From positions 1 through 45,726 of the forward strand of contig JAXLYI010000029.1 of the NCBI GenBank assembly GCA_046351555.1: 45,726 bases of DNA, given 5' to 3'. This DNA is from Polyangiales bacterium (GTDB lineage: Bacteria > Myxococcota_A > Polyangia > Polyangiales > Ga0077539). The notes under the pieces were generated by a model. The model had not been told where the DNA came from, made no database searches, and saw only the letters and a program-made list of their open reading frames with translations. Position numbers and translations under genes: made by a program. Positions 954-36,836 of the stretch are shown piece by piece. Every line of letters starts with the position of its first letter. Within the stretch, counting starts at the first letter, position 1.

Positions 954-1040
954 CCGGCGGCCTAACACGCGGGTTACCGGGTTATCGCGCCGGAGCCGGC
1001 GGCCTAACAGGCGTGTTACGGGAATACCGACGGGTTAGGC
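954..1040 (+). other. attI recombination site with two IntI-binding direct repeats and the R core GTTAGGC
   Basis: The direct repeats are CCGGCGGCCTAACAcGCGgGTTACcGGG (about 954-982) and CCGGCGGCCTAACAgGCGtGTTACgGG (about 996-1023). Each contains the inverted core GCCTAAC (960-966 and 1002-1008). The core GTTAGGC lies at 1034-1040, with a second GTTRRRY (GTTAGAC) at 1054-1060. The site sits between divergent intI and the cassette genes, as in class 1 to 3 integrons. Confidence 0.75.
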
Positions 1041-1120
1041 AGTCGAAGATGATGTTAGACAGGTGAACTAGATGACAAACTTGCGAGGCGTCGCGGACGT
1101 CGGAAGGGTGTCGACTCGGA

Positions 1121-2038
1121 ATGACTACAATCGCACAGCAATTCCGGAACTTTAAACAACGTCTCGGCAATGTGAACGCCCACATCTGCATGGTGGATGC
1201 TGTTGTCGCGAATGCCCTCGAAAGTGCACAAGATACGGATACTCCAGAACGGTATCTGGAAGAACTAGCAAAGAAGCAGCAGCACTATCTTGGCTTCAAA
1301 CAAATCCCAGAGTTGCGCAAGCCGCTGGGTTCTTTCGGCATTGTGTTCCAACATCAGGTGCTCGAAGGCTTTTTGCAGGACCTCGAAGAGTATCTACGGG
1401 GGAAACCTTCGTACAATGCTATGGATCCCAATGGCACTGATCCTCGCCCGAAGGGGGAGGACATGCTGCGGCGCTTGGTCCGAAAGCTAGTTCTCCTGGC
1501 CAACAAGCAAGAGCTACCATTAAGTTACAAAGACGAGAACGAGCGAGATGCAGCGCTGCGCGAGGAGATCTTTTGTAGTACCGTCGGCAACGTCGAGACT
1601 CACCTGATGGAATACTATCGATTGGTTCGGAATGCCGCGGTGCATGCTGATATCGATCGAATCGCCGAGAATTATTACAAAGCCCACTTTGCGAGTATGC
1701 AGTCAACGCGCAATCAAACCGAATCGACACTTGAGCAAGGAGAGCCTCAGCGATTCACGCCGGAGAAGTTGACTCGTCTCTACAAGGCTAAGCCTTCAAG
1801 TGTCAATGCCATTTCAATTGAAGATATGATCCTGTATTCGCGGGTCATGCAGAAAGTCACACGGGCACTTCTGGTGATGGCACGTCCCGACATCGAGACC
1901 GAGATACTTCCCGTTCTGAGGAAATCGTTTTCCCGCTTTGAGAGTGAAGAACGTCGCAGGAAGGCTATCGTTGGAGCGTTGTGCACAGACTATCTGCTTG
2001 ACGCAAATGTGGCAAAGGAATATGCTTCTCGTGGCTGA
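1121..2038 (+). CDS. Cassette-encoded hypothetical protein with a HEPN-like Rx4H motif; putative RNase or abortive-infection-type effector
   Basis: This is a 305-aa ORF with an ATG start and low GC. The motif ...ETHLMEYYRLVRNAAVHADIDR... carries R-N-x3-H, which is the canonical HEPN Rx4-6H active-site signature with a polar residue after R. I recognise no other family. Confidence 0.6.
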   Translation: MTTIAQQFRNFKQRLGNVNAHICMVDAVVANALESAQDTDTPERYLEELAKKQQHYLGFKQIPELRKPLGSFGIVFQHQVLEGFLQDLEEYLRGKPSYNAMDPNGTDPRPKGEDMLRRLVRKLVLLANKQELPLSYKDENERDAALREEIFCSTVGNVETHLMEYYRLVRNAAVHADIDRIAENYYKAHFASMQSTRNQTESTLEQGEPQRFTPEKLTRLYKAKPSSVNAISIEDMILYSRVMQKVTRALLVMARPDIETEILPVLRKSFSRFESEERRRKAIVGALCTDYLLDANVAKEYASRG

Positions 2039-2133
2039 CTAGCTTAGCGGTAGAGCGCTTTCGTCTCAAGCCCATCTCCATCGGCGGTGGGTTTGAGAGG
2101 AAAGAGGCAGTGGTTCGACTCCTCTGTCAGCCG
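2033..2133 (+). ncRNA. tRNA-like element: class-I tRNA scaffold with anticodon loop GUCUCA (CUC, Glu-type), discriminator G and a 30-nt insertion between positions 37 and 38
   Basis: The acceptor stem is a perfect 7 bp, GGCUGAC (2033-2039) with GUCAGCC (2126-2132). U8 and A9 are present. The D-arm is GCUU/AGCGGUA/GAGC with A14 and GG. The anticodon stem is CUUUC (2058-2062) with GAAAG (2100-2104), and the loop begins G-U33-C-U-C-A37. Positions 2069-2098 are then inserted and pair back onto the anticodon (UCUCAAGCCC with GGGUUUGAGA). The variable loop is AGGC. The T-arm is AGUGG/UUCGACU/CCUCU with G53-C61 and T54-psi-C-R-A58. No CCA is encoded. The element overlaps the ORF1 stop codon (TGA 2036-2038). 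Confidence 0.5.
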
Positions 2134-2172
2134 ATCATCTGTGAATTGCGTTTTGCAACACCGTTTGGGTAC

Positions 2173-2263
2173 GTCTAACAAGCCGATGGTGCCGACCGCC
2201 CCCTCCTCACTCACCCGCTACCCACCTGCCCCGCTGCGGCGGCACATCGGCAGGCCGTTGGGC
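2173..2263 (+). repeat. attC site of cassette 1 (91 bp; R'' GTCTAAC ... R' GTTGGGC)
   Basis: The site is GTCTAAC-aagccgatgGtgccgACcgcc-[32-nt variable centre]-gctgcggcggcacatcggcaggcc-GTTGGGC. The flanking arms are imperfect inverted repeats with unpaired G and AC, the extrahelical bases typical of attC. R'' fits RYYYAAC and R' fits GTTRRRY. The conserved arms reappear at 4933-5023. Confidence 0.72.
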
Positions 2264-2323
2264 AGCTTCGGAGTACGACGCTGCGAATGAGCAGCAGAAC
2301 CTTACAGAAAAGGCTAGGCCCAC

Positions 2324-3721
2324 GTGAAGACTGACGTAAGCAGCCAACTTGTCGTAAACATAGATCGCAAACGGTACACCGCACTTTCAGGTCTGTGGAA
2401 GAGCCCATATGCCTCTGTTATGTCAGAGGAAATAGATTGGTATTCGAATACTGACGAGTCGATCTTAGCCGTTGTGCTGCACGACTATACAGATAACGAT
2501 TACGCGGCTGTTGTGTCGATGCGCGATCTGAGCGGACGATTCAGGGCCGTTGATGTACAAGTTTCCTTCGTTACGGTTGCCGCCGCTGTCGAGTGGCTTA
2601 CAAGTACGATTTGCTCACGGTCGGAGTCCGGCGAAAAACACCATCGACAGGGGGACGAGGTGCCGTCGCTCAATCTTTTCGATCCAGTAGTCCCGCAAGA
2701 GCGACTGCATCCAGGTTTCGTGCACCTCGCCAACGACCTCGCATTTTTGCCGGGGCGATCAATCATTCGAGAATTGATGCCTCATTATCATGACATCGAC
2801 GGGAACTTTGTCAGTCAGTTCCAATCAAGCGGGTTTGACGCGAGAACATGGGAACTGTATCTGTTCACCTACTTCAAAGAGGAGGAGTTATTCCTCGATC
2901 GAACTCATCGCTCCCCGGACTTTATTGTCAGCAAGTTTGATCGCAGCGTTGCCGTTGAGGCCGTTATTGTAGGCCGCCAGCTTGACAACCCACCGAAACG
3001 AGGAATTGTTAAGGCTCCCAAGTCTGCAACTGAAATTCAAGAACTGCAAAAAGATCTCATGCCAATCCGATTTGGCAGTCCACTGAACTCGAAGCTTCGA
3101 AAGAAATATTGGAGATCTCCGCATGTTCGTGGTTTGCCGCTCATCTTTGCGATAGCTGACTTCCATGATGATCAGTCTATGCTGTGGTCGTCGACAGCGC
3201 TGGGTAATTACCTTTATGGTTACCGTCATGAGCATTATTATGACGAATCTGGAACACTTGTCGTCAAACCAATCAAAATCAATTCGCACAAATTCGGCGA
3301 CAAAAAGATTCCCTCTGGTTTTTTCTTCTTGCCTGGTGCGGAGAACGTCAGCGCGGTGCTTTTCTCTGCTTCCGGGACGATTTCAAAGTTTAATCGGCTC
3401 GGACGCCAAGCGGGTTTTGCTCACCCTGGAGTGAGAATGTTTCGCAGAGGAACTCTGCACGATCACGACCCGAACGCTTCAGTGCCGCACATCTTCAGTT
3501 ACGAAGTGGATGAAACGAGTGAGGAAACGTGGGGTGAGGGGCTTTCGATGTTTCATAACCCGAAAGCTAAGTTTCCAGTCCCGCGGGAGCTTTTTCCGAG
3601 CATCGCCCATCACTATTTCGAAGATGGCCACATCAGAAGTGTTCTGCCGGAGATCTTTGTATATTCGTCGACCACGATTCACATGATTGCTCGCGACGAC
3701 GGAGGGGAGGAAAATGCATAG
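2324..3721 (+). CDS. Cassette-encoded hypothetical protein (465 aa) with a possible PD-x(n)-E nuclease-like patch
   Basis: The ORF starts at a GTG and has low GC with no good RBS. The segment ...WELYLFTYFKEEELFLDRTHRSPDFIVSKFDRSVAVEAVIVG... resembles the E ... PD ... (D/E)x(K) core of restriction-endonuclease-fold enzymes, but the K is not evident. I recognise no other family. Confidence 0.55.
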   Translation: MKTDVSSQLVVNIDRKRYTALSGLWKSPYASVMSEEIDWYSNTDESILAVVLHDYTDNDYAAVVSMRDLSGRFRAVDVQVSFVTVAAAVEWLTSTICSRSESGEKHHRQGDEVPSLNLFDPVVPQERLHPGFVHLANDLAFLPGRSIIRELMPHYHDIDGNFVSQFQSSGFDARTWELYLFTYFKEEELFLDRTHRSPDFIVSKFDRSVAVEAVIVGRQLDNPPKRGIVKAPKSATEIQELQKDLMPIRFGSPLNSKLRKKYWRSPHVRGLPLIFAIADFHDDQSMLWSSTALGNYLYGYRHEHYYDESGTLVVKPIKINSHKFGDKKIPSGFFFLPGAENVSAVLFSASGTISKFNRLGRQAGFAHPGVRMFRRGTLHDHDPNASVPHIFSYEVDETSEETWGEGLSMFHNPKAKFPVPRELFPSIAHHYFEDGHIRSVLPEIFVYSSTTIHMIARDDGGEENA

Positions 3722-3783
3722 ACAGAGCGCTGCCGTCGGCGAAATTGATTTTCTTGATTCGCTGTTTGTGCTAGCTTTGCTGC

Positions 3784-3876
3784 GTGACCTAGCTGAATGT
3801 GCCTAACTCAGTTCAGCTTGGCGCCGCAGCAATGTGTGATGCGTTAGATCTGATCCGCACATGAATGCTAGGTCAC
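3784..3876. repeat. 93-bp imperfect palindrome in the ORF2-ORF3 intergenic region with embedded integron core-like motifs
   Basis: GTGACCTAGC (3784-3793) is the exact reverse complement of GCTAGGTCAC (3867-3876). The inner arms share ATGTGC/GCACAT. The centre is GGCGCC. GCCTAAC lies at 3801-3807 and GTTAGAT at 3843-3849. Confidence 0.5.
3801..3849 (+). repeat. Possible short or degenerate attC-like site (R'' GCCTAAC ... R' GTTAGAT)
   Basis: GCCTAAC fits RYYYAAC and GTTAGAT fits GTTRRRY. GCCTAAC also pairs almost perfectly with G+TTGGGC, which is the R' this cassette would carry when circular. However, the site is only 49 bp, its internal L arms are not complementary, and it is unlike the uniform 91-bp attC family. 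Confidence 0.3.
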
Positions 3877-3944
3877 ACTACCCCCTTCTTACATCACCGC
3901 CCCAACCGCCGCTCTCTAGCCGCGAAGCTTGAGTCAGGAGCACT

Positions 3945-4904
3945 GTGACTACCAAGCGACAAGAGGCTGTCGGTCTCAACCACGTTTCGCGTATTGTTCA
4001 AGTTTCGTGGTCAAGCGGATGGCAGGGAATTGACCCGCAGAACGATGACGCAGTTGATGGGGTCGTGTTCTTTCGTCAGCGAGATCGCGACACCGGGCAA
4101 ATTGCGTTTGTGCAGGTGAAGTCAGGACCGAGTTACTATCGCGAATGGAAGACGTCGCCTGATGTAGTTGGTGTGCAACTGGGCGAAGACTATATCAACA
4201 AACATCGTCCCCGCTGGAACTCACTGCCAGGGCCTGTTGTTTTGGTCTATGTTCTCGAGAGAGAAAAGAAGAAACCACTGTCATGGTGGGCGGATCTTCG
4301 ATGCGAGGAGTCGTACTCGCTCACGAACAAGCAGGTTGTCTTGCTTCAGAGGCACAACACGTTTGGTCCTCACTCGAAGGGGCATATCCGGCGACTAGCT
4401 AAAGCCGTTACGCTAGATTTGCCGACTATTGTCGCGCGGCGTCGAGATATCAACCTGAGTCCCCTTGGACACCAGTTCAAGTCCGCAATTCGGCAGGCTT
4501 ATGTTGATTGGGGGCATGCTGTAAATGCGGAGCGCGCTCACCCTACACTCGGAGTTGTGGAGGTATCGCGTGTTGGATGGCGCCACATAACTCGGCTTGG
4601 CCGCCGTCCAGAGCGTATTATTCATAGCTTGCATCTGCTTGGAATAGCTCGCCAGATGATCGTCCACGGGGGAAGCGTCAGTCCCATCGGACGAGCAAAG
4701 AGCCAGACGAGAGCGAACGGAGCACACGAGGTGCTGGACTACCTCGCACTTCGAGCCAATGTCGTATTTCCTCATCGAGGTCCGGCAATTGTGCAGGTCG
4801 TATTGCGCCGCAAGCGGATGATAGGCAAAAACGGAACGACGTCGCAACGATTGTGGTTTTACTCTGTGTACGAGTTGGGCCGTTCAACGCATAGATCGGC
4901 CTAA
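3945..4904 (+). CDS. Cassette-encoded protein with an N-terminal Mrr/Cap4-like PD-(D/E)xK nuclease domain (DUF4365/DUF4297-like) and an unknown C-terminal half
   Basis: The ORF starts at GTG 3945, preceded by AGGAG (3936-3940) at 4-nt spacing. The N-terminus ...GWQGIDPQNDDAVDGVVFFRQRDRDTGQIAFVQVKSG... has the D-x(n)-(Q/E)xK arrangement of the Mrr/Cap4 restriction-endonuclease fold. The protein is 319 aa and GC is about 52%. Confidence 0.6.
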   Translation: MTTKRQEAVGLNHVSRIVQVSWSSGWQGIDPQNDDAVDGVVFFRQRDRDTGQIAFVQVKSGPSYYREWKTSPDVVGVQLGEDYINKHRPRWNSLPGPVVLVYVLEREKKKPLSWWADLRCEESYSLTNKQVVLLQRHNTFGPHSKGHIRRLAKAVTLDLPTIVARRRDINLSPLGHQFKSAIRQAYVDWGHAVNAERAHPTLGVVEVSRVGWRHITRLGRRPERIIHSLHLLGIARQMIVHGGSVSPIGRAKSQTRANGAHEVLDYLALRANVVFPHRGPAIVQVVLRRKRMIGKNGTTSQRLWFYSVYELGRSTHRSA

Positions 4905-4932
4905 GGAAGGCTCAGGGTATCTTGACGCAACT

Positions 4933-5023
4933 GCCCAACAAGCCGATGGTGGCGACCGCCCCCACTGCTGCCGTCGAACAAGCACCTGGCCTACTGCGGC
5001 GCCACATCGGCCAGCCGTTCGAC
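4933..5023 (+). repeat. attC site (91 bp; R'' GCCCAAC ... GTTCGAC) closing the low-GC cassette block
   Basis: The site is GCCCAAC-aagccgatggtgGcgaccgcc-[variable centre]-tgcggcgCcacatcggcCagcc-GTTCGAC. Its arms are nearly identical to attC1 (2173-2263) and it has the same 91-bp length. The centre is variable, as in attC families of chromosomal integrons. Confidence 0.7.
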
Positions 5024-5037
5024 GAAGACATGACCCG

Positions 5038-5629: not shown

Positions 5630-6067
5630 GTGACCCCTTCTCTTTCGGATCTGCTGACGCTGCCGACGCCCGACGGCTGGCGCCGGATCCCGGTTCCGTC
5701 GGGGTGGGGATTCGCGCCGACGGTCGACGTTGCCGCGTACGGCGAACACCACGAGGACCTCCCCCTCACCGTCCTCGTTGCGAGGCTCTCGACGGACCCG
5801 ACGGGTTCGCCCGCGCGCACCCTCTCGGACTTGATGGACCGTCGCGTTCGCCGCGGTGAACCCGCCTGGCGCTCGGACCACATCGCGGGCGTCCCCGTTG
5901 TCGCGTGCGCCTGGGCCGAGGACGGCGTGGAGCGCTTCACCTGGTTCGTGCCGTTCTCGTCTGGTGTGATCGTGGAGTTTCAAGCGGTTCGTTTGCGTTC
6001 ATCGACGTGCGGCTCGCCGTTGCAAGAGGCGGCTCGTCCGATCTTGGACGCGGTCGTCTGGAGGTAG
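5630..6067 (+). CDS. Hypothetical protein (about 145 aa)
   Basis: A GTG-initiated frame with a consistent GC3 bias (...DGWRRIPVPSGWGFAPTVDVAAYGEHHEDLPLTVLVARL...). The overlapping longer ORFs (5084..6067+, 5267..5983-) look like shadows. The start is uncertain. Confidence 0.4.
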   Translation: MTPSLSDLLTLPTPDGWRRIPVPSGWGFAPTVDVAAYGEHHEDLPLTVLVARLSTDPTGSPARTLSDLMDRRVRRGEPAWRSDHIAGVPVVACAWAEDGVERFTWFVPFSSGVIVEFQAVRLRSSTCGSPLQEAARPILDAVVWR

Positions 6068-6820: not shown

Positions 6821-9445
6821 TCAGTGGAGCGCGGGCGGCGCGGCGCTGTCGCGCGGCGGGAGCGAGTGGCGCGCCGGCGGGTGCTCGCGCACGTAGCGAG
6901 TGGCCTTCTCCACGTCGAGCGGCGGCGCGATGGCGTAGCCCTGCGCCACGTCGCACCCGAGCGCGCGGAGCGTCATGAGCTGCGCGTCGTCCTCGACCCC
7001 CTCGGCCACCACGGTGAGCCGCAGCGCGCGGGCGAGCTCGATGATCGAGCGGACGAGCGCCGCGGCGGAGCGGTCGCCGGTGCGGAGGCCGTCGGTGAGC
7101 CCGCGGTCGATCTTCACCTCCTCGGCGGGGAACTGCCGGAGGTACGCGATGGAGGCGTTGCCCGCGCCGTAGTCGTCGATGGAGACGTGGACGCCGAGGG
7201 CGCGGATGCGCGCGAGGAGGCGGGCGCCGCGGTCGGGGTCGGTCATCACGGCCGTCTCGGTGAGCTCGACGACGAGGCGCGAGGGCGCGATGTTGTGCGC
7301 GCGGAGCATCGCGGCGACGTCGTCGACGAAGCCCGCCTCGTGGAGCTGCCGCGGCGAGACGTTGACCGCCATGCGGAGGCGCGAGGGGCCGTGGAGATCA
7401 TCCCAGCGGGCGAGCTGCGCGAGGGCGTGGTCGAGCACCCAGGCGCCGATGGGGACGATCTGCCCGGTCTCCTCGGCGAGCGGGATGAAGCGGCCGGGGG
7501 GGATGGCGCGGCCGTCGGGGCGGTTCCACCGGGCGAGGGCCTCGACGCCGACGAGGGCGCCGTCGGCGACGCGCACCTTGGGCTGGTACGCCAGCGAGAA
7601 CTCCCCGCGCGCGATCGCCTCGTCGATCTCCGCGCGGAGCTCGACCTTCCCGCGGATCGCGTCGCCCATCGCGCTCTCGAAGCGCACCGCGCGGCCGCGG
7701 CCCTGGCGCTTGGCCTCGTAGAGCGCGATGTCCGCGTCGCGCAGCGCGTCGTCGGCCGCGTCGCCCGGCAGCGCCCGCCGCACCCCGACGCTCGCCCCGA
7801 GCGTGAACGACATCGCGTGGACCGCCACCGGCTCGCGCAGCGCCTCCACCACCGCCTCGGCCACGCGCTCGCCCTCGCCCTCGCCGCGCGCCTCCACCAC
7901 CGCGACGAACTCGTCGCCCCCGAGGCGGCCGATCCAGCGGTCGTCGCGCTCGCCGAGGACGGCCTCCATGCGCCGGGCGACGGTGGCGAGCACCGCGTCG
8001 CCCGCGGCGTGGCCGAAGGAGTCGTTGACCTCCTTGAAGCCGTCGAGGTCGATGAGGAGCACCGCGAGGGCTCTCCCCTCGGCGAGCCACGCCGCGAGCC
8101 GCGCGCGGAGCGTGGCGCGGTTGGGCAGGCCCGTGAGCGGGTCGACCGTGGCGAGGCGGTGGAGGGCGTCGACGTCGTGCGCGTTGAGCACCAGGCCCGC
8201 GACGTCGGGGTCGTCGCAGAGGTCGGTGACGCGGAGGTGGAAGTGCCGCAGCGCGCCGTCGACGCGGAGGCGGAGGTCGACCTCGGCGCGGTGGTCGGCG
8301 GACGACTGGGCGGCGGCGAAGGCGCGGCGGAGCTCGGCGAGGTCCGCAGGGTGGCAGGCCCGTTCGAAGCCGTCGGCGCTGACGGCGAGGCCGAGGCGCG
8401 AGGCGGTGGCGGGGGCCATTTCGACGACGGTTCCTTCGGGGAGGACGATGGCGACGACGTCGAGGGCGCCGGCGGACATCGTGCCGAGCGTGCGGGCGTG
8501 GGAGAGGGCGGCGTCGCGGACGAGCGACACGCAGCGGGCGCCGAAGAGCAGGGTGAGGGCCGCGCTCGACGCCATGCTCACGTGCGGGTCGAGGGCGCCG
8601 AGGAAGCCCGCCACGCCGGGCGCCGCGGTGGCGAGGGCGAGCAGGGCGACGCGGGCCCCGTTGCTCCGCCGGGGCATGAGGTTGAGCCGGACGAGGTCGC
8701 CCATCGACGGGTGCCACACCGACACGGCCACCGAGGCGCACGCGACGATGAGCGTCGCGGCGGTGAGCGCGTCGGGCCCGCGCTGCGCGAGGCGCCCGGA
8801 GAGCGTCCCGAGGTCGGAGACGAAGGAGAAGGTGGCGAACGAGAGGAGCGCGTAGAGCGACACGGGGCGCCGGCGCGCCATGGTGACGAGGGAGAGGGTG
8901 ACGGTGAAGGTCACGAGGTCGCCGGTGGGGTACACCAGCAGCGCGAGGCGGACGTCGACGGGGAGGGCGCGCGCCACGCGGTCGAACACGACGGCCCAGA
9001 CGAGCGCGGCCCCCGCGACGCCGACGATGAGCGCGTCGATGAGGACGAAGCGCGCGAAGCGGCGGTTGTTGACGCGCCCGAACGTGAGGATGGAGTCGAC
9101 CGCCATCACGTAGGCGAGCGCGAAGGCGACGTCACCGAGGCCGACGTCGCGCCCGCCGATGGTGTTGCCGCTCTGGCGGAAGAAGCACGCGAGCCCCGCG
9201 ACGCTGAGCCCGAGCGCGACGAGGTAGCGCGAGAGGGCCGGGCGGAGCGGCGGGGCGCGGCGCCAGGCGACCGCCACGGCCACGGCGCTCCCCACGAAGC
9301 ACGCGGTGATGAGCGGGTCGCGGGCCGACTCGGCGAAGTACGCCGTGAGGGACATCGCGCCGGCCGCCCACGCGAACACGCGCCACGCTCGCGCACGCGG
9401 CGCGGCGCCCGCCTCCGGGGGCGCGTCGGGCGGTCGGCTCGGCAC
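6821..9445 (-). CDS. Membrane-anchored GGDEF-EAL protein (diguanylate cyclase/phosphodiesterase)
   Basis: The 874-aa protein has an N-terminal multi-TM region and a GGDEF domain (RLGGDEFVAV). Its EAL domain shows ELTE, DDYGAG and EGVED motifs. Confidence 0.9.
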   Translation of the reverse strand: MPSRPPDAPPEAGAAPRARAWRVFAWAAGAMSLTAYFAESARDPLITACFVGSAVAVAVAWRRAPPLRPALSRYLVALGLSVAGLACFFRQSGNTIGGRDVGLGDVAFALAYVMAVDSILTFGRVNNRRFARFVLIDALIVGVAGAALVWAVVFDRVARALPVDVRLALLVYPTGDLVTFTVTLSLVTMARRRPVSLYALLSFATFSFVSDLGTLSGRLAQRGPDALTAATLIVACASVAVSVWHPSMGDLVRLNLMPRRSNGARVALLALATAAPGVAGFLGALDPHVSMASSAALTLLFGARCVSLVRDAALSHARTLGTMSAGALDVVAIVLPEGTVVEMAPATASRLGLAVSADGFERACHPADLAELRRAFAAAQSSADHRAEVDLRLRVDGALRHFHLRVTDLCDDPDVAGLVLNAHDVDALHRLATVDPLTGLPNRATLRARLAAWLAEGRALAVLLIDLDGFKEVNDSFGHAAGDAVLATVARRMEAVLGERDDRWIGRLGGDEFVAVVEARGEGEGERVAEAVVEALREPVAVHAMSFTLGASVGVRRALPGDAADDALRDADIALYEAKRQGRGRAVRFESAMGDAIRGKVELRAEIDEAIARGEFSLAYQPKVRVADGALVGVEALARWNRPDGRAIPPGRFIPLAEETGQIVPIGAWVLDHALAQLARWDDLHGPSRLRMAVNVSPRQLHEAGFVDDVAAMLRAHNIAPSRLVVELTETAVMTDPDRGARLLARIRALGVHVSIDDYGAGNASIAYLRQFPAEEVKIDRGLTDGLRTGDRSAAALVRSIIELARALRLTVVAEGVEDDAQLMTLRALGCDVAQGYAIAPPLDVEKATRYVREHPPARHSLPPRDSAAPPALH

Positions 9446-9494
9446 ACCTTTGTAAACGGGCGGACGCGGCCCGAACGTGAGGGGACGCTGTTCG

Positions 9495-10412
9495 TTACCT
9501 GCGCAGGTCGAGGTCGCCCGCGGCGAGGAGCGCGGCCTCGCGGAGCACCCACCAGGTGGCGCGGCGGCGGTCGGTCCAGGCCGGAGACACCGCGGCGACC
9601 GTCACCGGGTCGAGGCCCGCGGCCCGCGCGAGGCGACGCGATCGCGCGAGGTGGAAGGTGTCGCTCACGATCGCCACGGGGCCGAGCGGGAGCCCGCGCG
9701 CGCGGAGCACCCGGGCGGCCTCGGTCATGTTCTCGCGGGTGGTGTGCGAGCGCTCTTCGCGGAGGGAGACGTCGTCGGGCAGGCCCATCGCGCGCGCCAC
9801 GGACGCCGCCGCGACGCTCTCCGCGGGCCCGTGCGTCCCGACGCCGCCCGTGAAGAGCACGCGCTCCGCGAGGCCGTCGCGGTAGAGCCGCACGCCGCGC
9901 TCGATGCGCGCGACGAACACCGGCGAGGGGGTCCCGTCGTCGCGCAGGCCGAACCCGAGAACCACCGCCGTCCCGACGCGCCGCGGGGGGTCGCCGCCCG
10001 CCTCCGCCACGCAGCGCACCACCTCGCCGACGAAGAGCGCGCCGACCAACGCCACGGACGTTGCGACCGCCCACGCGACGCGCCCACCCCGCGCAGGCCA
10101 GCGCGTCGCGCACCACGCGCCGAGGGCCACGGAGAGCGCGCGGGCGGCGAGCCAGGCGGGGCGCGTCCAGGGGACACCGAAGGGGATCCACGCGCCGAGC
10201 GACGCGTCGAGCGCGACGGCCGCGAGCGCGGAGAGCGCCACGACGCGACGAGATGCTTGGGTGAGCCGGACGAGCGACCACGCCGACAGCGCGCCGAGGA
10301 GGAAGAGCGAGGCGCGCGCGGCGGGCGGGAGCGCGACGGCCGCGAGCACGGCGCCGAAGGTCTGCGCGGCGGCGGCGCCGAGGAGCATTGCGGCGAGCGC
10401 GGGGCGCTTCAC
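9495..10412 (-). CDS. YdcF/ElyC (DUF218) family protein
   Basis: The C-terminal 305 aa of ORF 9495..11216 read ...LFTGGVGTHGPAESVAAASVARAMGLPDDVSLREERSHTTRENMTEAARVLRARGL...VSDTFHLARS, which are DUF218 signatures. A GTG start at 10412 is used; an ATG at 10388 is the alternative. There is an N-terminal TM segment. Confidence 0.75.
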   Translation of the reverse strand: MKRPALAAMLLGAAAAQTFGAVLAAVALPPAARASLFLLGALSAWSLVRLTQASRRVVALSALAAVALDASLGAWIPFGVPWTRPAWLAARALSVALGAWCATRWPARGGRVAWAVATSVALVGALFVGEVVRCVAEAGGDPPRRVGTAVVLGFGLRDDGTPSPVFVARIERGVRLYRDGLAERVLFTGGVGTHGPAESVAAASVARAMGLPDDVSLREERSHTTRENMTEAARVLRARGLPLGPVAIVSDTFHLARSRRLARAAGLDPVTVAAVSPAWTDRRRATWWVLREAALLAAGDLDLRR

Positions 10413-11656
10413 GCGAGGCGCGCGATGCGGGCGACGAGGGCGGCGCCGTCGCGCGGGCGGAGGCTCGGGTCGCGGGCGAGGCAGTCGTCGACGAGGGACG
10501 CGAGCGCCCCGGTGGGCCCCGGGCAGAGCTCGCGCGCGAGGGCGCCGAAGGCGAACACGTCGGCGACGGGGTCGGCGGGCGCGCCGTCGGCGGCCTCGGG
10601 GGGCACGTAGCCGGGCGTCCCTTCGAACGCGCTCGCGGCCACGCCGGCGCGGCGCGCGAGGCCGTAGTCGGTGAGCACCGCCCGCCCGTCGGCGCGCAGG
10701 AGCACGTTGCCGGGCTTGAGGTCGCGGTGGACCCAGCGGCGCGCGTGGGTGGCGGCGAGGGCCCGCGCGACGTCGTCGAGCCACCCGATCGCCTCCGCGG
10801 GCGCGGGCTTCGCACGGGCGACGCGGGCGCGGAGCGAGCCGCCGCCGGCGTGCTCCATCGCGATGGCGCCGGCCTCTTCGAAGAGGTCGTGCACCCGGAC
10901 GACGCAGGGCGAGGCGACCGCGGCGGCGACCTGGGCCTCGCCGCGGAGGCGCGCGTTGCGGTCGGCGCGGGCCTGCGGGTGGTAGATCTTGAGCGCCACC
11001 TCGCGGCCGACGCGCTTGTCGCGCGCGAGGTAGACGGCGCCGGCGCCGCCGCGGCCGAGCTCGCGGAGGAGTTCGAAGCGCCCGACGGCGACGGACGACT
11101 CCGGGGCGAGCAGCGTCGCGCCGGCCTCGCCGGCCTTGGCGGGTCGCTTGAGGCGCGCGTGGCGCTCGCGCGCGCCGGGGTACTGGAGGTCGATCGCGAG
11201 CGCGGCCTCGTACCACCCGAGGGCGCCGGCGACGTCGCCCGACTCCGCGGCGAGGTCGCCGAGGCGGGTCATCGCGGCGGGCGCGTCGGCGAGGGGCCCC
11301 GCGGCGAGGGCGCGGAGCACGCGGTCAGTGGCCTCGCGGTCACCGCGCGAGAGGAAGAAATCCGCGAGCTCGAGGCGCGCCTCGGCGGTGAGGTCGGGGT
11401 GCTCGGCGTGGTCGCGCAGCCACCGCATGAGCGAGATGGAGGCCATGCGCGAGAGCTGCGCGCCGTCGAGGGCCTTGCGGACGCGGCGCACGCCCTCGGG
11501 CACGGGGAGCCCGGCGAGCTCGTCGAGCGGGTCGGCCTCGGGCCTCACGCGGGCGGGCTCCTTCTCGCTTTCATCGCTGTTCCCCACCTCGCCCTCCTCG
11601 GGGAAGGGGACGGGGTCGGGGCCGAAGATCCTTCGGAAGAAATCGCGGATTCCCAT
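10409..11656 (-). CDS. Ser/Thr protein kinase with an N-terminal TPR-like region
   Basis: The protein starts MGIRDFFRRIFGPDP... and carries the kinase motifs GRGGAGAVYLARD, VALK, HRDLKPGNVLL, DYGLAR and TPGYVPPE. The start was derived by counting back from the ORF end, and the gene is 415 aa. Confidence 0.85.
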   Translation of the reverse strand: MGIRDFFRRIFGPDPVPFPEEGEVGNSDESEKEPARVRPEADPLDELAGLPVPEGVRRVRKALDGAQLSRMASISLMRWLRDHAEHPDLTAEARLELADFFLSRGDREATDRVLRALAAGPLADAPAAMTRLGDLAAESGDVAGALGWYEAALAIDLQYPGARERHARLKRPAKAGEAGATLLAPESSVAVGRFELLRELGRGGAGAVYLARDKRVGREVALKIYHPQARADRNARLRGEAQVAAAVASPCVVRVHDLFEEAGAIAMEHAGGGSLRARVARAKPAPAEAIGWLDDVARALAATHARRWVHRDLKPGNVLLRADGRAVLTDYGLARRAGVAASAFEGTPGYVPPEAADGAPADPVADVFAFGALARELCPGPTGALASLVDDCLARDPSLRPRDGAALVARIARLA

Positions 11657-11749
11657 CGCGGGCGCCGCACTCTGCAACGGCGCGGCGGGGACTTCAATGG
11701 GGCGCGTTGGCAATGCACGCGCCGGCGCCGGTCGCGATATCGTGGGGCC

Positions 11750-35942: not shown

Positions 35943-36836
35943 ATGAACGACCTCGCGCTCCCGCTCTCCCGCGACGGGCTCCGCCCGCGCATCCTCGCCG
36001 CGCTGGTGGTGGTGTACCTGGTGTGGAGCTCGACCTACCTCGCCGTCCGCCACATGGTGGCCGAGCTGCCGCCGCTGCTCGTCGGGGGCTGTCGCTTCAT
36101 CCTGGCGAGCGCGCTCCTCTTCGCGGTGCAGCGGCTCCGCGGGGCGCCGATGCCCGCGCCGGGCTCGTGGCCGCGGGCGGCGGGCGCGGGGGTGCTTCTC
36201 TTCACGCTGGGCAACGGGCTGGTTTGCCTGGCCGAGACCCGCACGAGCTCGAGCGTCGCGGCGGTGGCGTGTGCGTCGACGCCGCTGTTCGTGGCGCTGT
36301 TCGGCGCGCTGCGGGGCGAGCGGCCGAGCCGGCGGGAGGCGCTGGCCATCGCGGCGGGCCTCGCGGGGGTGGCGGTTCTCTTCGCGGGGCGCGACCTGCG
36401 GGTGGCGGGCGCGCGCGGGGCGCCGCTCTTCCTGGCGCCGGTGGCGTGGGCGGGGGGCACGGTGCTGGCGCGCGGGGCTCGGGTGGCGTCGCCGACGACC
36501 TTCGCGGCGCAGCAGATGCTCTGCGGCGGCGCGGTGATGGCCGCGTCAGGCTGGCTGCTCGGCGAGCGCCTCCCCGCGCACGTGTCGAACGAGGCGCTCG
36601 GCGCGGTGGGCTGGCTCGTGGTGATGGGCTCGGTGGTCGCCTTCCCCGCGTACGCCTTCCTCGTACAGAACGCGCGGCCCGCGGTGGCGACGAGCTACGC
36701 GTACGTCAACCCCGCCCTCGCGGTGCTGCTCGGCGCGGCGCTGGGCGGCGAGTCGCTCGGCGCGTCGACGCTCGGCTCGCTGGCGCTGGTGGTGGCCGCG
36801 GTCGCCCTCGCCACGACGGGCGGCGCGCGGCGGTAG
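35943..36836 (+). CDS. EamA/DMT-family transporter
   Basis: The 297-aa protein has 10 predicted TM helices. It is transcribed divergently from the MocR regulator, a common pairing. Confidence 0.8.
   Translation: MNDLALPLSRDGLRPRILAALVVVYLVWSSTYLAVRHMVAELPPLLVGGCRFILASALLFAVQRLRGAPMPAPGSWPRAAGAGVLLFTLGNGLVCLAETRTSSSVAAVACASTPLFVALFGALRGERPSRREALAIAAGLAGVAVLFAGRDLRVAGARGAPLFLAPVAWAGGTVLARGARVASPTTFAAQQMLCGGAVMAASGWLLGERLPAHVSNEALGAVGWLVVMGSVVAFPAYAFLVQNARPAVATSYAYVNPALAVLLGAALGGESLGASTLGSLALVVAAVALATTGGARR

Follow-up and report, generated by a model that had tools for sequence, protein, structure and literature searches.

The DNA analysed here, referred to as the window, is a stretch of 45,726 nucleotides from a Polyangiales bacterium (contig JAXLYI010000029.1). 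Its G+C content is about 75% across the window and about 50-55% in the region from 1000 to 5000, where a two-gene cassette is located. The preliminary description had placed these two genes between two 91-bp attC sites. Both sites are genuine, and they are the only two attCs in the window. The left-end open reading frames that we scanned contain no integrase domain, and the ORF at 8-1066, at the left end of the window, has no Pfam match. The island as a whole (1000-5030, 50-55% G+C, two attCs) looks like a CALIN, an attC cluster lacking an integrase, and not a full integron. The cassette contains the following features.

2173..2263, + strand: attC, left boundary of the cassette (R'' GTCTAAC ... 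R' GTTGGGC; 90.7 bits)
2324..3721, + strand: PD-T7-1 (anti-phage), first of the two cassette genes, 465 aa (PADLOC PD-T7-1, E 1.4e-181)
3728..3759, + strand: short terminator-like hairpin (3728-3741) and T-rich tract, directly after the PD-T7-1 stop codon, from a terminator scan
3769..3777, + strand: putative extended -10 box TGCTAGCTT, 6 nt upstream of stem P1, with a predicted start at about 3784
3784..3876, + strand: conserved rod-like hairpin element, with the conserved block running to about 3879 (CACACT), defined by folding, homologues and covariation
3877..3944, + strand: pyrimidine-rich linker from the hairpin to the DUF4365 start, 42.7% identical to L010 with a 21-nt indel
3945..4904, + strand: DUF4365 / DREN-like nuclease gene, 319 aa (Pfam PF14280, E 1.6e-20)
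4933..5023, + strand: attC, right boundary of the cassette (GCCCAAC ... GTTCGAC; 94.7 bits)

In the AF2 model of the DUF4365 protein (pLDDT 88) a DREN-type nuclease domain occupies the N-terminal part, and the C-terminal half is rich in beta structure. In a Foldseek comparison of this model with the PDB the top matches were SPARDA DREN-APAZ chains (E 2e-7 to 1e-5). A sequence profile search of the PDB with the same protein returned nothing, and the link to SPARDA DREN-APAZ is made through the fold search only. DUF4365 nucleases have been reported as the effectors of SPARDA systems (PMC10810196, PMC12205087). No Argonaute gene was found near the DUF4365 gene of the window. The C-terminal sheet of the protein gave weak matches to OB-fold or SSB-like folds (E about 0.01-0.05).

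The palindrome and its conserved copies

Between the two genes the preliminary description had noted a palindrome with perfect inverted termini of 10 bp and inner arms that also pair, and this palindrome is real. Reading the sequence and scanning it for repeats both showed GTGACCTAGC (3784-3793) and GCTAGGTCAC (3867-3876) to be complementary at 10/10 positions. Further in, TGTGC at 3798-3802 pairs with GCACA at 3857-3861, and TCAG at 3808-3811 with CTGA at 3850-3853. Two heptamers resembling attC cores sit where they had been reported, GCCTAAC at 3801-3807 and GTTAGAT at 3843-3849; the distance of 49 bp given between them is correct if the heptamers themselves are counted, the actual gap being 35 nt. 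Folded as single-stranded DNA the 93-mer reaches -19.3 kcal/mol (z = -3.2), with 2/200 shuffles folding equally well. The expected number of perfect 10-bp inverted repeats with a spacer of at most 100 nt is 0.012 in the 223-nt intergenic region and 0.44 in the 4-kb low-GC island. By itself the palindrome is only moderately unusual, suggestive and not decisive. The element owes its significance to its conservation, with covariation, at three further loci.

We compared the window copy (W) with the related loci L010, L002/L003 and L005/L007. The sample comprises four distinct sequences (W, L010, L002 and Archangium), of which W and L010 are from orthologous cassettes, and the statistics drawn from it are soft. 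A further locus (L001), a short contig 100% identical to the window, is not an informative copy. L010, from the Polyangiales MAG STL-MYX7, carries the orthologous cassette in the order attC, PD-T7-1, element, frameshifted DUF4365 gene, attC, with the stretch homologous to window 3783-3882 at 3819-3918 on the + strand and the element proper at 3820-3912. The frameshift, near codon 115-130, splits the DUF4365 gene (4001-4961), which is probably a pseudogene; the hairpin upstream of it is fully intact. In L002/L003, a 633-kb JGI metagenome contig with a large cassette array, the homologous stretch is found at 4776-4875 (+ strand), with the element at 4777-4869. Here it opens a cassette at its 5' end, 87 nt past a true attC, and next comes a shortened PD-T7-1-like gene (PD-T7-1dN; 40% identity) that overlaps the DUF4365 gene (67% identity).

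The most divergent setting is that of Archangium violaceum Cb vi76 (L005/L007). A covariance model trained on the other three sequences detected a divergent copy there (33.3 bits, E 6e-5), at 5829-5926 of L005 on the + strand (5830-5920 for the element), some 80 nt 5' of a DUF4365 gene (46% identity). On contig JPMI01000255.1 this copy lies at about 36335-36425, with a predicted transcription start near 36338 (L005 5833). The locus is a low-GC island among housekeeping genes and is not part of an integron; a covariance model of local attCs found no attC in it. A PBP gene lies divergently upstream, and PD-T7-1-like (PD-T7-1dN) and PD-T7-5-like genes lie convergently downstream of DUF4365. All four copies of the element have the sense orientation and precede the DUF4365 transcription unit by 60-90 nt, a placement kept in three gene orders. 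W and L010 have PD-T7-1, element, DUF4365; L002 has element, PD-T7-1dN, DUF4365; and Archangium has element, DUF4365, with the PD-T7-1dN and PD-T7-5-like genes convergent.

The element, a DUF4365 gene and a PD-T7-1-like gene are present together at 4/4 element loci, whereas the PD-T7-1-like gene is absent from about 30 other DUF4365 loci. We did not find the element upstream of these ~30 other DUF4365 genes either, which indicates that the DUF4365 family in general does not need it. Searched with the covariance model with filters off, 27 other DUF4365 loci and 2 loci with short PD-T7-1-like genes gave generic weak hairpins only. A search with the PD-T7-1dN gene of L002 returned no relative above 44% identity, and the two contexts that we examined contain neither a DUF4365 gene nor the element. 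The PD-T7-1-like and DUF4365 neighbours span 2324-4904 in the window, 4854-6963 in L002, 6001-9402 in L005 and 2351-4961 in L010; they may constitute a two-gene defence module and not two independent single-gene systems.

Searches beyond these loci returned little. The element had no blastn match in plasmid and phage collections. Scanning viral contigs for the pattern GATCTGATCCGCACATG gave one chance match, within a coding region, and scanning metagenome contigs for GCGTTNGATCTGATCCGCACATG gave none; the pattern TCAGTNCAN{16,30}GATGCGNNNNNTCTGNTCCGC had four matches in metagenome contigs, all unrelated and without a covariance model score. No Rfam 15 family matched the element at the gathering threshold. 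With the limit relaxed to E<=10 the W and Archangium copies were still unmatched, and the L002 stretch gave only a 9-bit rne-II match, upstream of the element. Judged from sequence comparison, the element is a new structured-RNA motif of narrow distribution, represented by four distinct sequences and with a putative function.

The fold consists of five helices on the + strand, and the outer stem differs between copies.

3784-3793/3867-3876, + strand: outer stem P1
3798-3802/3857-3861, + strand: stem P2
3808-3811/3850-3853 (and 3813-3814/3847-3848), + strand: stem P3
3819-3824/3841-3846, + strand: stem P4
3825-3828/3833-3836, + strand: apical stem P5
Outer stem in W: GTGACCTAGC/GCTAGGTCAC
Outer stem in L010: GTGACCTGGC/GCCAGGTCAC
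Outer stem in L002: GTGGTCGGGC/GCCCGATCAC
Outer stem in Archangium: GCCGAGC/GCTCGGC

In a model-fitted alignment of the four sequences 9/31 pairs have changed on both sides, and 95.1% of cells are paired. None of 500 shuffles reached the observed values, and controls in which the pairing partners were slid were 23-48% paired. An independent alignment with MAFFT and RNAalifold recovered the same P1-P3 with 8 covarying pairs, and the minimum free energy folds of W and Archangium, each computed from a single sequence, have the same rod shape. Compensatory changes keep the base pairs, as in a structured RNA, in a set of only four sequences. P2, for example, changes from TGTGC/GCACA to GGGGC/GCCCC with pairing kept. 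Read on the + strand, every copy contains 3-4 G.U pairs; the - strand would have C.A mismatches in their place. The alifold energy is -40.8 kcal/mol for the + strand against -32.9 kcal/mol for the - strand. G.T pairs are tolerated in single-stranded DNA too, and a function of the element as top-strand ssDNA is still conceivable.

Conservation extends to the unpaired positions. The loop and bulge nucleotides are nearly invariant among W, L010 and L002, and Archangium shares the blocks GCCTAxCTCAGTxCA, GATGCG and TCTGxTCCGC with the other copies. Such loop conservation exceeds what a simple stabilising hairpin needs, which leaves room for a trans-acting or ligand-binding RNA. What these comparisons show directly is that the four copies are homologous, that their pairs covary, that one strand is preferred, and that the placement with respect to DUF4365 stays the same through three gene orders.

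We also followed divergence along the cassette. The elements of W and L010 share 91.4% identity, compared with 71% for the 62 nt before it and 43% for the 68 nt after it, and the synonymous sites of the adjacent PD-T7-1 gene give pS 0.34 and dS 0.46. The element is more conserved than both its flanks and these synonymous sites, which we count in favour of purifying selection acting on it. In comparison with L002 the element is 86-91% identical and DUF4365 about 67% identical in nucleotides; nothing else aligns. For the DUF4365 genes of W and L010 synonymous sites are saturated (dN 0.24), and the switch from recent divergence on the left to ancient divergence on the right falls at about 3879, the 3' end of the element. 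The two cassettes (window 2170-5023, L010 2207-5080) are mosaic: identity is 77-91% over attC1, PD-T7-1 and the element, drops to 43-68% in the linker and DUF4365, and is back at 83.5% in attC2. Homologous exchange anchored in the conserved element may explain the switch, since the best-conserved stretch would act as a patch of homology.

A candidate promoter and leader RNA

We infer a promoter, a transcription start and a regulatory role for the element. The putative -10 box of the window has counterparts in L010 (TGCTAACTT, 3805-3813) and L002 (TGCTACCGT, 4761-4769). These three copies share TGCTAnnnT, and TAnnnT lies 6-7 nt before P1 in 4/4 copies; in Archangium the promoter-like sequence reads TTGATC-17-TACGCT. 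Apart from the TAnnnT box the upstream sequences of W and L002 cannot be aligned. In a stricter sigma-70 scan all the boxes before P1 fell below threshold; myxobacterial promoters may differ. Further upstream, the three integron copies have a T-rich tract that can be aligned. The stretch 3728-3759 may end the upstream transcription unit, or it may be an A/T-rich upstream part of the promoter.

The linker between the hairpin and DUF4365 contains a Shine-Dalgarno sequence, AGGAG, at 3936-3940. A short ORF (3861-3932, 23 aa) begins at an ATG within GCACATGA. In W and L010 this ATG opens ORFs of 23 and 32 aa, both stopping just short of the DUF4365 start, and in L002 it is the called gene start. 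We considered a leader peptide or sequestration of the start codon, and rejected both: the GCACATGA ATG is absent in Archangium, which has GCCCCCGG, and the encoded peptides are unrelated. A riboswitch-like competing hairpin (3777-3797/3812-3832) was rejected as well, its outer part not being kept in L010 or L002. The linker showed no conserved structure that would sequester the Shine-Dalgarno sequence, act as a switch or form an alternative fold, and a regulatory mechanism of the hairpin is thus left without support.

We propose that the palindrome encodes a conserved structured RNA some 96 nt in length, which would form a long irregular hairpin of five helices with conserved internal loops. 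Transcription would start at the base of the outer stem P1, directed by the extended -10 box 6-7 nt upstream, and would proceed on the gene-sense strand; the mRNA of the DREN-like DUF4365 nuclease would then begin with the hairpin. In L002 it would lead an operon of the PD-T7-1-like gene and DUF4365. The element would then mark an internal transcription unit within the two-gene cassette and not a site of recombination. Its likely role would be post-transcriptional control of a potentially toxic nuclease, and candidate modes are protection or stabilisation of the mRNA 5' end, processing, binding of a conserved host factor, or ligand binding. The reading that, on sequence evidence, we favour on balance and with reserve is a promoter inside the cassette and, behind it, a structured leader RNA at the 5' terminus of the DUF4365 transcript. 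The suggestion in the preliminary description of an RNA hairpin controlling the downstream gene with its AGGAG and GTG start is the one that fared best, given the sense-strand location, the invariable position upstream of DUF4365, the covarying stems and the promoter-like box.

Alternative readings of the element

It is possible, if rather doubtful, that the element is a separate small non-coding RNA that works as part of the defence module and is more than a leader. Its partner would be the DREN-like nuclease, the PD-T7-1-like protein or both, and it could inhibit them in the manner of an antitoxin or serve as their sensor or cofactor. Such a role would fit the joint occurrence of element, DUF4365 and PD-T7-1-like gene at all four loci and at none of the ~30 other DUF4365 loci, the almost invariant loops and bulges of W, L010 and L002, and the fact that the nearest solved folds, the SPARDA DREN-APAZ effectors, act in RNA-guided complexes. 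The layout also resembles that of type III toxin-antitoxin systems, in which an RNA gene lies ahead of the gene for a toxic effector. The type III antitoxin ToxI and the msr-msd ncRNA of retrons, which has terminal inverted repeats, are parallels: each is a structured ncRNA directly upstream of a toxic effector gene in a defence locus, and terminal inverted repeats are found here too. Unlike these, the element is a single unit with no tandem repeats, no intrinsic terminator follows the hairpin, and there is no reverse transcriptase. The RNA is also far more conserved (about 90%) than the proteins (65% and 40% amino acid identity), the opposite of what co-evolving partners would show, and most DUF4365 homologues work without the element, the single-gene Divona cassette among them (10.1101/2024.07.02.601686).

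A more elaborate version, which we regard as unlikely, joins the ncRNA, the DREN-like DUF4365 nuclease and the PD-T7-1-like protein in a three-part anti-phage module. As an antitoxin, decoy or sensor the RNA might restrain a collateral nuclease until infection occurs; alternatively, it might be a riboswitch that responds to a ligand and so gates a defence nuclease. The near-invariant loops and the strict co-occurrence with both proteins make such a module compatible with the data.

Very unlikely, in our judgement, is a signal at the level of double-stranded DNA, such as an operator palindrome bound by a dimeric regulator in the DUF4365 promoter region. The position close to the promoter would suit an operator, and symmetric changes in the two arms would also be expected if both half-sites had to match one protein. 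The interior of the element, however, is strongly conserved and yet asymmetric. Helices P2 to P5 persist through substitutions that obey pairing rules and pass through G.U pairs, which would be meaningless in duplex DNA. Between the W type and Archangium the arms of the outer stem are wholly different with their pairing preserved, and no regulator gene is linked to the element.

We consider it highly improbable that the element serves, or once served, for recombination in an integron. It would then be an attC belonging to an unusual family, or the eroded attC of a scar where a PD-T7-1 cassette and a DUF4365 cassette were fused; the preliminary description had offered both an attC of a different family and an eroded attC marking a cassette fusion. 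It does share with attCs the form of an imperfect palindrome of about 90 nt within a cassette array, folding as a single strand with internal loops that interrupt the stem, and its two heptamers fit RYYYAAC and GTTRRRY. In L002 the element ends right before the first gene of the cassette, and the change between W and L010 from dS 0.46 to saturation exactly at its 3' end resembles a cassette boundary. Fused gene cassettes are known to arise through loss of an attC (PMC4670013), and as in those cases there are two genes per attC pair here, with differing histories across the junction.

The comparison of copies speaks against either version. The heptamers are not conserved: they become GCCTAGT in L010 and GCCTAAT/GTTCGAT in L002, and are different again in Archangium. 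They also lie inside the stem and not at its base, where GTGACCTAGC/GCTAGGTCAC has no AAC/GTT, the AAC...GTT being invariant in 12/12 attCs of W, L010 and L002. We built a covariance model (R3) from these 12 local attCs and ran it with filters off at E<=10; it recovers every one of them and two attCs outside the training set, at 62.3 and 22.5 bits. Scored with this local model, the element gave no match on either strand at any of the four loci (W, L010, L002 and L005). Covariation ties the outer 10 bp into one unit, and crossovers at an R' site would have broken this linkage. The attCs of integrons are recombined by IntI via the folded bottom strand, with extrahelical bases, whereas the G.U/G.T pairs of the element, as indirect evidence, favour folding of the top strand. 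The element is found in mid-cassette, at a cassette 5' end in L002 and not at a 3' end, and, in Archangium, among housekeeping genes outside any integron with no attC nearby. Pairing of the proposed cores as CTAAC/GTTAG was examined and rejected: it is perfect in W, is kept with wobble pairs in L010, has one mismatch in L002 and reaches 3/5 in Archangium, and it is mutually exclusive with the conserved P3 and P4.

Of the fusion idea, the part that stands is that the sequences left and right of the element have different histories (dS 0.46 against saturation). In contrast to documented fused cassettes (PMC4670013) there is no detectable remnant of an attC, and the gene pair is also found outside integrons. 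No fusion of two cassettes is therefore needed, and capture of a ready-made module is the more likely origin of the two-gene cassette.

The least probable reading is that the element terminates or insulates the PD-T7-1 gene upstream of it, or is cut by an RNase III-type activity between the genes. It does lie between two co-directional genes in W and L010, and the hairpin is long and stable, with a pyrimidine-rich stretch behind it. But no T-run follows it (the tails are ACTACCCCC, ACTCTTCC, ACTTTCTTC and GTTTGATA), the terminator scan skipped it and flagged the small hairpin at 3728-3741, and both genes of L002 lie downstream of it. With a divergent upstream gene in Archangium nothing reads in, so that the hairpin, conserved there without an upstream co-directional gene, cannot be a terminator or an intercistronic scar. 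Two further identities were discarded. Mimicry of a tRNA, considered for the strings GCCTAGCTCAGT, GTTCGATC and GGGGCCTAGCTCAGT, was dropped as the Rfam tRNA model gives no score and a cloverleaf cannot be drawn. A MITE or other transposon was dropped with one copy in the 45.7-kb window, one per related locus, no flanking direct repeats and none in plasmids or phages.

Relation to known systems and neighbouring features

The favoured reading, a leader RNA of the DUF4365 unit, has parallels in bacterial 5' leaders. The 5' hairpin of ompA stabilises its mRNA, the leaders of rnc and pnp are cut by RNase III, and an aminoglycoside-sensing leader has been proposed for class 1 integron cassettes but is disputed. 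As in such leaders the element would be a promoter-proximal, sense-strand hairpin in the 5' UTR, 60-90 nt before the start codon and linked to its gene across contexts. It differs in being much longer, in having loops conserved in sequence, and in having no known effector, ligand or nuclease and no Rfam match.

Cassettes with promoters of their own are known from sedentary chromosomal integrons, for example Sucellos and toxin-antitoxin cassettes, and Divona is a DUF4365 defence cassette carried as integron cargo, with a crr6 C-terminal domain (10.1101/2024.07.02.601686). The cassette described here is similar in its apparent own promoter and in carrying a DUF4365 nuclease as integron cargo. 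In contrast to Sucellos and the toxin-antitoxin cassettes, the putative promoter lies inside a cassette of two genes, ahead of a conserved structured RNA; in contrast to Divona the C-terminal domain is not crr6, Pfam finding only PF14280. The element is not described in the papers on SPARDA, on these defence cassettes or on cassette fusion (PMC10810196, PMC12205087, 10.1101/2024.07.02.601686, PMC4670013).

For annotation, the consequence is a correction: a palindrome in a two-gene cassette that looks like an attC appears to be a gene-linked structured RNA and not a scar of recombination. Palindromes in cassette arrays therefore need comparative evidence before they are labelled attC. The results also suggest that a myxobacterial integron carries a defence cassette with its own internal promoter and leader. 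If so, the DUF4365 nuclease could be expressed without the Pc promoter of the integron and whatever the place of its cassette. The element is a candidate new RNA motif, absent from Rfam and tied to a DREN-type nuclease and PD-T7-1-like proteins, and it can be tested in a cultivable organism, Archangium violaceum Cb vi76.

Several smaller observations concern the arrays themselves. L002 and L003, from two metagenome samples, have the same cassette of element, PD-T7-1dN and DUF4365; their gene calls then differ (6963-11700) and agree again from about 11.7 kb. This difference is consistent with gain, loss or shuffling of cassettes in an active array with several attC sequence families.

In the window, a tRNA-like element (2033-2133, + strand) lies directly before the first attC and hence within the preceding cassette. 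It scores 44.9 bits with the Rfam tRNA model and has canonical acceptor, D and T arms; a 37-nt insert in place of the anticodon loop lengthens that stem, and ARAGORN calls nothing here. Its 5' acceptor strand overlaps the stop codon of the ORF at 1121-2038 (305 aa), which has neither a Pfam nor a PADLOC match. At the border between high and low G+C an 81-nt imperfect palindrome, GCCTAAC...GTTAGGC (960-1040, - strand), fits the R''/R' consensus. The local attC model gives only 8.9 bits, on an overlapping + strand stretch (1002-1040), and this palindrome could be a divergent attC or an attI-like site.
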